Positions 47,262 to 53,490 of a DNA stretch of 64,000 nt are shown here, one piece after another; within the stretch, counting starts at the first letter, position 1; each line of letters opens with the position of its first letter. The DNA is taken from the NCBI RefSeq assembly GCF_002854065.1, contig NZ_CP024147.1; one strand, given 5' to 3'. Both the position numbers and the translations under genes were made by a program. The notes below the pieces were generated by a model. It searched no databases and was not told where the DNA came from. It worked only from the letters and a program-made list of their open reading frames with translations. Source of the DNA: Escherichia coli. Its GTDB lineage: Bacteria; Pseudomonadota; Gammaproteobacteria; Enterobacterales; Enterobacteriaceae.

Positions 47262-48905
47262 TTATGCCGTCCGGGCAACGGCATCACGCGAAGCGGCATC
47301 GCGCTCTTCGCCCGTCAGCTCGCTAAGTTGCCCGTTGCGCATCTCCAGCAGGCGGTCGGCGTGGATAAAGTAATGATCATCATGACTGATGGCGAAAATA
47401 GTTTTACCCATCTCCTGCATCAGCGGCAGCAACACCTGATAAAACTCACGACGGAAGTGTGGATCCTGATCCGCCGCCCATTCATCCAGCAGGATAATAT
47501 CGCGTTCTTCTGCCAGCGCCAGCAACAGCGCCACGCGTTTTTTCTGCCCTTTTGATAACTTCAGGTTAACAATACGCCCGTTGCTTAACTCAAGCTTATG
47601 AGCCATTTTCAGCTGCGCCAGCCACTTCTCAACCAGTTGCGGGTTAGCGGGTTTACCCTCCGGCCCCAGCAGTTGATCAAACAGCCAGACATCGGTAAAC
47701 ACTGCCGAAAACAGTTTGCGATAATCTTCCGGTTGTTCGCCGCTGACAGGTTTGCCATCCAGCAAGATTTCGCCGCTTTGTGGCTGATACAAGCCCGTCA
47801 ACAACATCGCCAGCGTCGATTTTCCGCTACCGTTGCCGCCAATCAGAAACAGCAGCTCGCCACGTTTGATGGTGAGATTAATCGGACCAACGGAAAACGC
47901 GTTATCCTGATAAGCAAACGTCACGTTACGCAGCTCCAGCGTTTGCCAGTTGGGAAACGCCTGCGGGCGCGGAAACTCTGCTTTGAAAGGCGCGAGCGCG
48001 AATTTGTTCAGCTTGTTAAACGCCACCTGCGCCGTCAGCAGCGTCGGCAATGCGCCAACCGCCGAAAGCAGCGGCGTACGCAGGAATAAAAGCGTCAACG
48101 AATAGGTCGCGGCAACGTTGGTATCAGCCCAACCGAGGCTGTTCGCCATCCAGAACACCAGGCCGATTGCGCCCAGCATCATGATGTTTGACCAGTTCAC
48201 GGCACTAAGATGGAAGGTGTCTGCGCGAATAATATGATGGCGATACTCTTGCGCATCAGGAATGTAGAGGTTGTTAAACACATACTCGGCGCGTTCCCGG
48301 TTCAGAGTCAGCTCTTTGCGCCCTTCAAGTACAGTTTGAAAATCCGTGTACAGCTTGTCTTCGGTTTCACGCAGGGTCGCCATATGTTTGTACACCCGCG
48401 CCACCAGCACAAAACCGCCCCAGATGGTGATCGCCATCCAGATAGCCGTTACCAGCAACATTTTGCCCGACAGCATCCACAGATACGCCGCAGAACCGAT
48501 AGTGAGAATGATCCCCTGCACCAGTTCCGGCAGACGCACAAAAGCAATGGTGATATTACGCACATCGCTGGTTAATCCCGCCAGCAACGAGGCGCTACCG
48601 AGTTGTTCAATGCGCTCGACGTGAGTATCCAGAATCCGCTTGATAAATTCACTACGCAGTCGGTAAACGAAGTGATGCCCCAAAGTGGTGAGCGCCAGTT
48701 GCGATCCGAGAGTGACTGCCATCAACAGCAGCAATAATCCCAGAAACTCCGGCAACACCAGCAGACTGGTATCCGCCGTTTCGATAAGGCGCTGATTGAT
48801 AAAAGCAATTAAGCCAATGCCTAAAGCCGCACTGGCGAGGCTTAGCGCCATCACACTGATAAATGGCCAGCGATACTGCCGCCAGACAAGTACAAGAAGT
48901 TCCAT
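47262..48905 (-). CDS. yojI: ABC transporter (fused permease/ATPase), microcin J25 efflux
   Basis: 547-aa ORF with N-terminal TM domain and C-terminal ATPase (GGNGSGKST); matches YojI as recalled. Confidence 0.9.
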
Positions 48906-48980
48906 GCAGAAAACCCGGACAATGAATTACAGCCCGCAGTTTAAACATCTTCGCGCGCACAGCAATAATAATTCTTATTT

Positions 48981-49631
48981 TTATTCTTTTTTACCTGCCT
49001 GACGGAATGTCAGGTTGTAGCGGCAGTCGGTGGTGAGTGGATGAAACCCCGCTTTCAACGGTTGAATACCGTGATAAAACAGCCGCGATTCACCGCCCCA
49101 TACCACCACATCGCCATGTTCCAACAACAAACGTTTGAGCGGATCATTACGTTTCAGGCCACCAAATTGAAAAATCGCGGGTAAGCCCAGAGAAACAGAA
49201 ACAATTGGCGCGCGCAGATCCGGTTCGTCTTTATCCTGATGCAGCGACAGTTTCGCGCCAGGAGCGTAGCGGTTGATAAGACAAGCATCTGGCTGGAAAT
49301 CTGGATAGCCCGCCGCCGTAGCCGCACGTTGACATAAATTATGAAAACTCTGCGGCATGGCGGGCCACGGTTTATTTGTTTGCGGATCAATGGGCGAATA
49401 GAGATAACCTTGCCGATGGGTCGTCCAGCCCAGATGCCCACAGTTGGTCATCGCCACCGACATGGTATATCCCCCGGGGGTGACCATCTGGCGAAACGGC
49501 GACTGGCTGGCAACGTCATTAATATCGCGGATCAGTTGCTCCGCAGCGTTAAAAGCAAAACGCCGTAAAATTACCGCACCAGCCGCCAGTGGCTCTTGCC
49601 ACGGTTCAGCATCGGCAAACAGATCCAACAT
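48981..49631 (-). CDS. alkB: Alpha-ketoglutarate/Fe(II)-dependent DNA/RNA demethylase AlkB
   Basis: 216-aa ORF, start/stop coupled to ada (1-nt overlap); matches AlkB as recalled. Confidence 0.93.
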   Translation of the reverse strand: MLDLFADAEPWQEPLAAGAVILRRFAFNAAEQLIRDINDVASQSPFRQMVTPGGYTMSVAMTNCGHLGWTTHRQGYLYSPIDPQTNKPWPAMPQSFHNLCQRAATAAGYPDFQPDACLINRYAPGAKLSLHQDKDEPDLRAPIVSVSLGLPAIFQFGGLKRNDPLKRLLLEHGDVVVWGGESRLFYHGIQPLKAGFHPLTTDCRYNLTFRQAGKKE

Positions 49632-50695
49632 TACCTCTCCTCATTTTCAGCTTCGCGGCGCAGCAGTTGCGCTTTGCGCGACGCGCCCCAGCGGTAACCT
49701 GAAAGCGATCCATCACCGCGTACTACCCGATGACAGGGTATAACGATAGCCAGCTTGTTGGCGGCACAGGCACTTGCAACGGCCCGTACCGCTTTCGGTT
49801 TGCCGATGGCGTTAGCCAGTTGCTGATAACTGACGGTTTCACCGCAAGGTATCGTGCGCAGTGCCTGCCAGACTTGTTGCTGAAAAGCAGTGCCGCGAAT
49901 ATCCAGCGGTAACGTCAGCGGCGTATCGCGTTGATTGAGGCTGGCGATCACTTCACGCACATGTTGCTGAAACGTCAGATCGGCAGGCGCGTTGTCGGCA
50001 GCGGGAAACATCTGCTGCAACTCGCTGATTAATGTCGCGTCATCATCGCCCAGCAATATCGCGCAAATCCCCCGCTCGCTTTCTGCCACCAGGCAACGAC
50101 CCAGCGCACAATCAGCCAGCGCGTAACGCACCGCCAGATTTTCGCCACCGTGACGGAATTGTTTAGCCGTCATGCCCAGCGTTTCGTCAGCTTTGCGGTA
50201 GTAACTGCTGCTGTCGGGGAATCCGGCGTTAAGAATAGACGTCGTCACGCTCTCCCCTTTCGCCAGCGATTCGCGCAAACGGCGAACGCGCCAGGCCTGT
50301 TGCCAGGCTTTAGGCGTCATTCCGGTAGTCGCTTTAAACAACCGATGCAGATGGAACGGACTCATCGCCACCTGGTCGGCTAAGACTTCCAGCGTTACAG
50401 GCGTTTCCTGTTCCAGCAGTCGACACGCGTGGGTGATTTTATCCAACCGATGTTGCCGGGGATTGGCTTTGTCTGGCTGACAACGTTTGCAGGGGCGAAA
50501 TCCGGCGGCGAGTGCCTCGCTGGCATTTGCGTAGAAGGAGACGTTTTCCCGCAAAGCATGTCTGGCGCGGCAAGACGGACGGCAAAAGATGCCTGTGGTG
50601 CGCACGGCGAAAACGAATTCGCCGTCGGCATTCGGGTCGCGGGCTAAGACAGATTGCCAGCGTTGATCGTCAGTTAAGCATGTGGCGTTTTTCAT
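49631..50695 (-). CDS. ada: Bifunctional transcriptional activator / O6-methylguanine-DNA methyltransferase Ada
   Basis: 354-aa ORF with N-terminal Cys cluster, AraC-type HTH and C-terminal PCHRV active site. Confidence 0.95.
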   Translation of the reverse strand: MKNATCLTDDQRWQSVLARDPNADGEFVFAVRTTGIFCRPSCRARHALRENVSFYANASEALAAGFRPCKRCQPDKANPRQHRLDKITHACRLLEQETPVTLEVLADQVAMSPFHLHRLFKATTGMTPKAWQQAWRVRRLRESLAKGESVTTSILNAGFPDSSSYYRKADETLGMTAKQFRHGGENLAVRYALADCALGRCLVAESERGICAILLGDDDATLISELQQMFPAADNAPADLTFQQHVREVIASLNQRDTPLTLPLDIRGTAFQQQVWQALRTIPCGETVSYQQLANAIGKPKAVRAVASACAANKLAIVIPCHRVVRGDGSLSGYRWGASRKAQLLRREAENEER

Positions 50696-50754
50696 AATCA
50701 GCTCCCTGGTTAAGGATAGCCTTTAGTCTGCCCGGTCACCATGGCACAAAAACC

Positions 50755-50775
50755 AACAATCTTGCGCTTTAATTT
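50755..50775 (-). promoter_or_regulatory. Ada box in the ada promoter
   Basis: Minus strand reads AAAAAAATTAAAGCGCAAGATTGTTGG; AAAGCGCA core at 50763-50770, about 70 bp upstream of ada ATG; overlaps the apbE stop codon. Confidence 0.7.
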
Positions 50776-51824
50776 TTTTCGCTGATAAGGAAGCTTTTAA
50801 ACTGCGGCGACATCCAGGTTTTAAAGCTATCACCTTCTTTGGTGATCATGTAGACCGCCAGCCCTTCCCGGCGAACAACCTCTTTGGCTTTCTCCGGCCC
50901 GAGCACCATTAAGCCAGTATCCCAGGCATCGGCTTCCAGCGCCGTCGGAGCAATCACCGTCACGGATACCAGATTGTGTTCGATGGGACGCCCGGTTTGC
51001 GGATCGATAACATGGGAAAGACGTTTGCCGTCCAGTTCGTAATAGTTACGGTAGCTGCCAGAGGTGCTAATCCCATGACCGTTGATATCCACCACAGCCT
51101 GAACCGCGTTTTCTTTATCGGTTGGTTTTTGAATCGCTACCCGCCACGGCAGGCCTTCACCGTTCATACCACGGCTGTTCAGCGCGCCGCCCACCGACAC
51201 CAGATAGCGGGAAATCCCTTCCTGCTCCATCAAGCGTGCCAGGTGATCCGCCGCATAACCTTCGCCGACGGTAGAGAGATCGACATATAAATCCGGCAGG
51301 TCTTTTTGCAGATATTGCTGATGCGACTGATTAATGACCGTCAGGTGCTGTAAGCCAGTTTTGGCTTTCATCGCATCGATCTGTTCCTGGCTCGGAATTT
51401 GAACCGGCTGTTGTTCCGGGCCAAAGCCCCACAGATTCACCAGCGGCCCGACGGTTATATCCATCGCACCATCGGTCCTTGCGCCAATGCGCAGCGAGGT
51501 GGTGACGATATCGGCCATCGCTTCACTTACCGGCCACGGCGACAAACTTTGCGAGTCGTTAAAGCGCATCAGCGCGGAATCTTTTTTATAGGTCGAAAGC
51601 AGCTGATCGTCGGCGTCCAGCTGGGTCTGAATCTTTTCTTTAAGTTCGGCGCTGCGTTTGGCGTCAATGCCCGGGATGCTGGCACGCCAGAAGGTACCCA
51701 TAGTTTTGCCTTCAAGAACGGTAACTTCAGTAGCGTGGGTTTTGGCGGGTTGTGGTTTTTGATCGCAACCAACAAAGAAGAGCGCGGCAGCCAGCAGTGC
51801 CACACGGGTAAAGCTTATTTCCAT
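50769..51824 (-). CDS. apbE: FAD:protein FMN transferase lipoprotein ApbE/Ftp
   Basis: 351-aa ORF with lipoprotein signal (FFVGC); matches ApbE as recalled. Confidence 0.92.
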   Translation of the reverse strand: MEISFTRVALLAAALFFVGCDQKPQPAKTHATEVTVLEGKTMGTFWRASIPGIDAKRSAELKEKIQTQLDADDQLLSTYKKDSALMRFNDSQSLSPWPVSEAMADIVTTSLRIGARTDGAMDITVGPLVNLWGFGPEQQPVQIPSQEQIDAMKAKTGLQHLTVINQSHQQYLQKDLPDLYVDLSTVGEGYAADHLARLMEQEGISRYLVSVGGALNSRGMNGEGLPWRVAIQKPTDKENAVQAVVDINGHGISTSGSYRNYYELDGKRLSHVIDPQTGRPIEHNLVSVTVIAPTALEADAWDTGLMVLGPEKAKEVVRREGLAVYMITKEGDSFKTWMSPQFKSFLISEKN

Positions 51825-51893: not shown

Positions 51894-51917
51894 GAAAAAA
51901 GGGCCCGCAGGCCCTTT
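51894..51917 (-). terminator. Intrinsic terminator after ompC
   Basis: Minus strand reads caaagggcctgcgggccctttttt: GC stem followed by U-run, 19 nt past the ompC stop. Confidence 0.75.
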
Positions 51918-51935: not shown

Positions 51936-53078
<1,143 letters not shown>

Positions 53079-53245: not shown

Positions 53246-53397
53246 AAGGGAACTTTTTAAGATTATTACGGAATGGCGAAATAAGCACCTAACATCAAGC
53301 AATAATAATTCAAGGTTAAAATCAATAACTTATTCTTAAGTATTTGACAGCACTGAATGTCAAAACAAAACCTTCACTCGCAACTAGAATAACTCCC

Positions 53398-53490
53398 GCT
53401 ATCATCATTAACTTTATTTATTACCGTCATTCATTTCTGAATGTCTGTTTACCCCTATTTCAACCGGATGCCTCGCATCCGGTTTTTTTT
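53398..53490 (+). ncRNA. micF: MicF antisense sRNA (represses ompF translation)
   Basis: GCTATCATCATTAACTTTATTTATTACCGTCATTCATTTCTGAATGTCTGTTTACCCCTATTTCAACCGGATGCCTCGCATCCGGTTTTTTTT: matches micF as recalled, ending in a hairpin terminator with U-run; divergent from ompC. Confidence 0.9.

Follow-up and report, generated by a model that had tools for sequence, protein, structure and literature searches.

The window considered here, i.e., the whole of an Escherichia coli DNA stretch of 64,000 nucleotides, carries on its minus strand, in the order of their transcription, ompC (51936-53063), apbE (50769-51824), ada (49631-50695), alkB (48981-49631), and yojI (47262-48905). The ompC product matches an NCBIfam equivalog model over its full length, as yojI does another NCBIfam model. 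The apbE product, an FAD:protein FMN transferase of 351 amino acids followed by a stop codon, likewise is a full-length match, at 724 bits, to the NCBIfam equivalog NF007774, and in a structure-database alignment it shares 99% identity with E. coli ApbE as solved in 2O18. Ada, at 354 amino acids, matches the equivalog NF011964 at 746 bits, again over its full length, and AlkB matches NCBIfam NF011930 at 381 bits, likewise along the entire model. The start of alkB overlaps the stop of ada, and these two genes form one operon (PMC8643705). Between ompC and apbE, also on the minus strand, there is the intrinsic terminator hairpin of ompC (51898-51917), which in a terminator scan displays an 8-bp stem with five GC pairs and a T-run. 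Upstream of ompC, on the plus strand, there is a gene for the MicF antisense RNA (53397-53490; Rfam RF00033, 116.8 bits). MicF is expected upstream of ompC at a locus such as this one, and it was the sole match in the RNA-family search, with no known family found at the apbE-ada junction.

It is that junction with which this study is concerned. Read on the minus strand it runs ...AGC GAA AAA AAT TAA AGC GCA AGA TTG TTG GTT TTT G..., that is, GAA AAA AAT TAA at the end of apbE and then AGCGCAAG. The Ada protein recognizes an ‘A box’, AAT, and a ‘B box’, GCAA (PMC4437013), and pattern matching places the complete operator, AATTAAAGCGCAA, or AAT-N6-GCAA (A box, six nucleotides, B box), at 50762-50774, where it is the same as that of K-12. 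The last sense codon of apbE, AAT (Asn351; 50772-50774), is the A box of this operator, and the stop codon, TAA (50769-50771), is the A/T part of the operator spacer, right after the A box. The B box (50762-50765) then begins 3 nt past the apbE stop, preceded by a C at 50766. Leading into the A box is a run of seven A's (50773-50779), found in the last three codons of apbE (GAA AAA AAT). Downstream, at 50696-50761, alignment with K-12 places what remains of the ada promoter along with the 5' leader, i.e., a T-run, a putative core promoter, and the Shine-Dalgarno sequence AGGGAG.

A distinction can be made between this two-box operator and the classical ‘Ada box’ core, AAAGCGCA, which has been named as the Ada-interaction sequence of the ada promoter (PMC3788762). 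The core, as a pattern match at 50763-50770 on the minus strand, shares only 2 nt with the apbE stop codon, whereas the full two-box operator spans both the last sense codon and the whole of the stop. The sequence-only reading had placed the core at precisely these positions, and the end of apbE at 50769, and both are exact. Its claim that the Ada box of ada overlaps the last codons and stop of apbE is borne out as well, with the A box being the Asn351 codon and the spacer holding the TAA.

The match also holds upon alignment with the characterised ada promoter. The window is identical to K-12 from the last codons of apbE through AATTAAAGCGCAAGATTGTTGGTTTTTG, i.e., over the operator and the T-run. 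The distance from the operator’s B box to the ada ATG is 66 nt, on the same strand, with ada and alkB directly downstream, and in a published table (PMC6505713, Table 7) AATTAAAGCGCAA is entered as the regulatory sequence of ada, 66 nt before the ATG. In comparison with the K-12 ada operator, then, the element, its distance to the ATG, and the ada-alkB operon are the same, with the window differing only at 50746, 50744, 50743, and 50727, all of which are past the operator. [quoted passage not shown] The T-A-A that follows AAT in the window, together with C50766 preceding GCAA, matches the high-affinity, ada type of site.

What is known of this element can be stated briefly. Once methylated at Cys38, Ada binds the A and B boxes in a sequence-specific manner, and at ada the protein then serves as a type I activator, which requires the C-terminal domain of the polymerase alpha subunit as well as sigma, with polymerase binding the ada promoter only along with methylated Ada (PMC4437013). 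From a few Ada molecules per cell (PMC4437013), or about one (PMC8643705), induction brings the number to about 3000 (PMC4437013). Binding by methylated Ada and induction have been established for the K-12 sequence (PMC4437013, PMC3788762), and it is from that identical sequence that Ada binding and induction at the site in the window are carried over. A consensus promoter scan returned no sigma-70 match at the ada promoter, as is to be expected since this promoter is activator-dependent.

Motif counts do not contribute to this identification. There are nine occurrences of AAAGCGCA in the window versus 5.7 +/- 2.4 expected, with 10 of 100 shuffles reaching nine, and there are nine occurrences of AATN6GCAA versus 16.9 expected. 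As neither motif is over-represented in the window, enrichment was dropped as an argument; the tiling-array study makes the same point genome-wide, that is, that the Ada motif on its own does not go beyond chance (PMC6505713). This copy of the motif is taken as real instead because of its identity with K-12, its published 66-nt distance, and its conservation in 80 species. In all, it is very probable that the site is the authentic and already characterised ada-alkB operator, packed against the end of a co-directional apbE.

Within E. coli, the overlap to which the sequence-only reading drew attention is conserved across strains, and the arrangement extends to all 80 of the species sampled (below). 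A 281-bp query across the site matched 5421 of 5426 E. coli complete genomes, with strain XJ34 at 100%. A 30-mer with the operator at its centre (50786-50757) is carried unchanged by 5387 of the 5405 complete genomes that it matched, the remaining 18 differing somewhere within it, and for a 38-mer (50784-50747) at least 5009 of 5421 genomes show 100% identity, with the rest differing at one position. Three variants of the 38-mer were inspected, two with T to C at 50756 and one with an A6 run, and all of these changes are outside of both boxes. The 38-mer and 30-mer counts come from searches using a word size of 11. A 56-nt megablast query, with its word size of 28 nt and low-complexity masking of the A-run, matched only 1178 genomes.

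The strain with the A6 run is ETEC1748 (NZ_CP122719.1, 1756262-1756597), in which six A’s replace the seven of window positions 50773-50779 and the frame is shifted. RefSeq gives the apbE of this strain an additional 45 nt, such that the annotated gene crosses both the Ada operator and the T-run before ending at a TAA in GACTAAAGG. The A6 run could be a homopolymer sequencing error or instead a genuine frameshift variant. A -1 frameshift site at the A-run (A AAA AAT) was considered as well and rejected, the heptamer not being conserved in other genera.

Past the operator, the promoter of the window reads TTTTTGTGCCATGG versus TTTTTGCGTGATGG in K-12, with three clustered substitutions at 50746, 50744, and 50743. 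These fall just after the T-run and presumably near the expected -35 region, and position 50727 additionally is A in the window versus C in K-12. As at least 926 genomes carry the window’s exact 56-mer (among the 1178 matched by the 56-nt query), the substituted promoter is a common allele. Given their location, the clustered substitutions could result in a promoter strength which differs from that of K-12.

For conservation beyond E. coli, an Ada protein scan with one genome taken per species supplied 80 loci from about 17 genera, with identities to Ada ranging from 97% to 66%. Genera sampled include Escherichia, Citrobacter, Salmonella, Enterobacter, Kluyvera, Kosakonia, Trabulsiella, and Lelliottia, and further Pseudocitrobacter, Pluralibacter, Raoultella, Leclercia, Yokenella, Superficieibacter, and Huaxiibacter. 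In all 80, apbE is directly upstream of ada and on the same strand, with a gap of 66-83 bp in 79 and of 227 bp in one. With apbE ends aligned by their stop codons, the first base of the terminal codon is A in 79 of 80 species, its last two bases are those of AAT in 80 of 80, the stop codon is TAA in 80 of 80 (never TAG or TGA), the base following the stop is A in 80 of 80, and GCAAG is invariant, likewise in 80 of 80, though the 80 species are mutually related, and such counts therefore do not amount to independent observations. Variation is seen at the two bases which separate that A from GCAAG. Following the operator, GGTTTTT is conserved, and intergenic DNA beyond the T-run falls to 0.1-0.7 bits per position.

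Individual loci depart from this picture in a number of ways. In Enterobacter asburiae INSAq146 the last codon of apbE is CAT (His), and the A box therefore is CAT. In Escherichia sp. ESNIH1 an in-frame TAG occurs two codons earlier, and AATTAA is kept just outside of the reading frame. The gap of 227 bp, versus the usual of about 75 bp, is that of Citrobacter sedlakii NBRC 105722, and it is owed to about 150 bp of extra DNA inserted past the operator and promoter, both of which are conserved; the ada leader may there have acquired a small mobile element or repeat. One record labelled Chryseobacterium sp. 18061 (CACSKA010000001.1) presents a typical Enterobacteriaceae apbE-ada locus, with an Ada that is 66% identical; this record probably is mislabelled or a contaminated assembly.

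The base preceding the B box, i.e., that at window position 50766, is C in 18 of the 80 species (Escherichia, Salmonella, Kosakonia, and a few others) and A in the other 62. Most genera, that is, may possess an ada operator of lower affinity than that of E. coli. The published Salmonella form of the Ada site is GAATTAAAACGCA (PMC3788762), and two of the loci in the sample (L024 and L025) display that form.

Sampling was taken deeper by means of representatives of Ada clusters at no more than 55% identity, along with their contigs. One contig, with an Ada that is 55% identical, keeps the order porin-apbE-ada-alkB-yojI and reads AAT TAA AAC GCAAG at the junction. In the other representatives ada is found in unrelated gene contexts, and the overlap for that reason can be described as a feature of the Enterobacteriaceae and close relatives rather than of Ada systems generally. 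One such context, on a high-G+C contig (L088; JGI 3300041409), has an unrelated partial open reading frame which ends, within 125-145, in GGC TGA, followed by GTTCGAAGGCAAGG. A B-box-like GCAAG there lies 9 nt past the stop, with AGT at the place of the A box, and the Ada downstream is 51% identical. Perhaps an Ada-type site has here come independently to adjoin the stop of an upstream reading frame, or perhaps the resemblance is due to chance.

Two genetic elements sharing DNA raises the question of which of them is imposing the constraint. The 120 best matches listed by a search with ApbE were all from Enterobacteriaceae, at 76% identity or more. Over the last 150 codons of apbE, a synonymous-site test found the third base of the terminal Asn codon to be T in 78 of 78 sequences. 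By comparison, the four other conserved Asn codons of apbE use T in 14-48%, and in 19 other conserved, Y-ending two-fold codons the major base reaches only 51-86%; among these 20 Y-ending codons, the terminal Asn is the only one with an invariant third base. Indeed, of 97 apbE codons at which the amino acid is conserved, the third base is invariant in just 2. With regard to the stop, a TAG or TGA would introduce a G:C pair where R45 and R71 of Ada read A/T pairs (contacts per PMC4437013). With regard to the protein, of the 351 residues of ApbE the last 5-9 are outside of the alignable region, alignment extending only to residue 346 with the Vibrio structure (6NXI) and to residue 342 with that from Pseudomonas (5MGY), and this tail is dispensable for the fold.

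It is the operator, therefore, rather than the ApbE protein, which constrains the coding end, given the invariant third base, the fixed TAA, the AATTAA kept outside of the reading frame in Escherichia sp. ESNIH1, and the unaligned tail. That is, the needs of the operator fix codon choice, as AAT rather than AAC and as TAA rather than TAG or TGA. The operator itself nevertheless has no need of a TAA as such: At an ada-alkA locus (L087) with a divergent upstream gene, the Ada site, AATTCAACCGCAAG, is found without TAA and in true intergenic DNA. The fixed TAA thus is best read as an intersection, of a stop codon being needed and of A/T pairs being needed at those same positions. To judge from the alignments, the same 13 bp serve two purposes, those of coding end and of operator. 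The sampled Enterobacteriaceae likely inherited the arrangement from their common ancestor, and purifying selection on the operator presumably has held it since.

How does transcription proceed across this junction? The terminator scan found no intrinsic terminator between the apbE stop and the ada start. The 135-nt junction, as RNA, folds no better than its shuffles (z = -0.2), and foldings of the junction in six species, including that of the window, gave only stems of 3 bp or of A/U pairs, with z about 0 in five of the six; the exception, one Kluyvera junction, folds better than its shuffles (z = -3.0). The ompC terminator is the only clear terminator-like site that the scan identified between ompC and yojI, with weak terminator-motif matches inside the apbE, ada, and yojI coding sequences occurring at no more than the rate expected from shuffles. 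Nor was a terminator-like site found in the alkB-yojI gap (48906-48980). This latter result agrees with the single segment, spanning ada-alkB-yojI and excluding apbE, that is induced by MNNG in tiling arrays (PMC6505713). The gene yojI, for microcin J25 efflux, may in other words be co-induced with the adaptive response. Published datasets from SMRT-Cappable-seq and 3'-end mapping contained no entries for apbE or alkB.

Read-through from apbE to ada is plausible as there is no intrinsic terminator between the two. Polymerases finishing apbE then would run through the operator and probably on into ada. Behind the ompC terminator, apbE probably is weakly transcribed, and read-through consequently would add only a trickle of Ada-independent ada-alkB transcript, with little occlusion of the ada promoter. 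That the flux should be small is suggested both by the low basal level of Ada and by the location of apbE behind the ompC terminator. No dedicated regulatory coupling would be needed. Mutual interference between apbE read-through and Ada binding, as the sequence-only reading had raised, is permitted by the geometry and is otherwise speculation. Three points weigh against any strong version of it, these being the basal Ada level of about one molecule per cell, the timing of an ectopic reporter for the ada promoter (PMC8643705), and the failure of cAMP-CRP to act as a roadblock (PMC3711431).

Going beyond such incidental read-through, transcription arriving from the apbE promoter, or through a leaky ompC terminator, could be viewed as the main source of the basal Ada which seeds positive feedback, with the absence of a terminator having been selected. 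Consistent with this are the absence of any intrinsic terminator or stable structure at the junction in E. coli or in five other genera, the adjacency of apbE and ada at gaps of 66-83 bp in 79 of 80 species and on the contig with the 55%-identical Ada, and the modelling of basal ada expression as proceeding at a constant rate, independent of Ada (PMC6818145). Synteny over such a range, however, is to be expected even without selection on read-through, and Ada orthologues outside of the Enterobacteriaceae function without an upstream apbE. An ectopic fusion of the ada promoter to CFP, located elsewhere in the chromosome and with the native ada unaltered, moreover was activated almost simultaneously with AlkA-mYPet (PMC8643705). 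Termination at the junction, furthermore, may be Rho-dependent, to which sequence alone is blind. Read-through as the principal and selected supply of basal Ada is on balance unlikely.

A second possibility is suggested by the lac system. There, as with apbE-ada, the site for the regulator of a downstream promoter is found at the end of a co-directional upstream gene, i.e., O3 at the 3' end of lacI, without a terminator in between. With an operator located at the end of a gene and no terminator following, transcription from upstream must in both cases cross a protein-bound site. In lac, however, the upstream gene encodes the regulator itself, making for autoregulation, whereas apbE is functionally unrelated to Ada. 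In addition, at O3 the protein is a looped tetrameric repressor for which roadblocking has been demonstrated (PMC3711431), whereas with apbE-ada it is an activator, at a single site, and the overlap there is known from sequence.

By analogy with lacI-O3, then, methylated Ada, alone or with polymerase at the ada promoter, might halt polymerases transcribing apbE prior to their reaching the stop codon, or apbE transcription might dislodge Ada. The predicted outcome would be non-stop apbE mRNA, tmRNA tagging, and less ApbE under alkylation stress, or instead a damped induction. Favouring such roadblocking or occlusion, the operator covers both the last codon and the stop, such that a polymerase halted at its upstream edge would be without a stop codon; induced cells contain about 3000 Ada molecules (PMC4437013); and LacI bound to O3, at the end of lacI, gives rise to truncated transcripts and SsrA tagging (PMC3711431, citing Abo et al. 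2000). Ada, though, is an activator acting from one short site rather than a looped tetrameric repressor, and in lac itself a bound activator, cAMP-CRP, forms no roadblock (PMC3711431). The text of the MNNG tiling-array study does not mention apbE (PMC6505713), the MMS studies that were searched report no change in apbE, and no paper linking apbE to the Ada regulon was found in the literature searched. This version of events consequently must be rated as very improbable.

A third possibility would have the conserved block be a terminator for apbE, or else code for a required ApbE C-terminus, with the match to the Ada box being incidental. It is the case that GCAAGATTGC plus the T-run form a tiny, hairpin-like motif in many species, that one Kluyvera sequence folds better than its shuffles, as noted above, and that most ApbE proteins end in Lys-Asn. 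The stems otherwise are of 3 bp or A/U-only, the z-scores of the other five species are about 0, and the scan is empty, and upon these grounds, i.e., the scan plus the foldings of the junction in six species, a terminator role for the conserved GCAAGATTGCGGGTTTTT was rejected. A need for the C-terminus, for its part, leaves unexplained why the synonymous third base is fixed and why the stop codon is always TAA, and does not fit with an AATTAA that is retained outside of the reading frame or with distant ApbE structures that lack the tail. As the sequence is that of an experimentally defined operator, moreover, this explanation is hardly credible in either form. Lastly, that the site is simply an 8-mer lying by chance beside a stop codon can be set aside almost entirely, for though bare motifs are not enriched in the window, chance does not supply identity with a characterised promoter at the published ada distance, nor invariance over 80 species where neighbouring intergenic DNA is free to vary.

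The preferred reading, that of the known ada-alkB operator abutting and overlapping the apbE end, can be placed next to other Ada sites as well. Those of alkA and aidB share with ada the AAT-N6-GCAA organization and the same activator (PMC4437013; PMC6505713, Table 7), but have an A before the B box, with an approximately 10-fold lower affinity than is conferred by the C of ada (PMC4437013), and are found at other promoter distances. The alkA-ada promoter of P. putida (PMC3788762) and the L087 site noted above, AATTCAACCGCAAG, similarly have AAT or ATT, N6, and then GCAA(G) upstream of an ada-containing operon. Unlike the site in the window, however, these latter Ada boxes do not overlap coding sequence, and their spacer is TCAACC versus TAAAGC or TAAAAA.

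It should be appreciated just how much of this is established. The operator and the protein contacts made with it are, like both genes, textbook knowledge, and the element is already known. In compact bacterial genomes, promoters commonly reach into the end of the upstream gene, and the overlap of apbE with the operator is present in K-12 too, visible in any annotated K-12 record, even if no discussion of it was found in the searchable literature. The overlap, that is, is ordinary tight gene packing and involves no new mechanism, and with a known element in a common arrangement its value as a discovery is small. What is incremental is how deep and how precise the dual constraint is, with the last codon as A box and the stop as A/T spacer, fixed over about 17 genera. 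In this respect the junction is a natural case, and a clean one, in which a regulatory site has fixed both a synonymous codon and the choice of stop across those genera.

There is a practical consequence as well. For engineering of the apbE 3' end, as with tags, deletions, or scarless fusions, or for construction of reporters from the ada promoter, what matters is that the A box is the last codon of apbE. As the A/T pairs read by Ada are the apbE stop codon, ‘silent’ edits to the end of apbE would not be silent for ada.

For the organism, any significance of the junction would have to do with the timing of the adaptive response, which is stochastic and governed by basal ada transcription, for which a junction lacking a terminator is a candidate source. 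It is conceivable, if quite doubtful, that the terminator-less junction, conserved throughout the history of the sampled Enterobacteriaceae, is functional in its own right, with read-out from apbE supplying basal ada transcripts and with Ada, sitting upon the stop codon, perhaps truncating apbE messages under alkylation stress. If that were true, then it would be read-out from apbE that determines how long, stochastically, a cell waits before its adaptive response begins, and thereby how much mutation rate varies from cell to cell.
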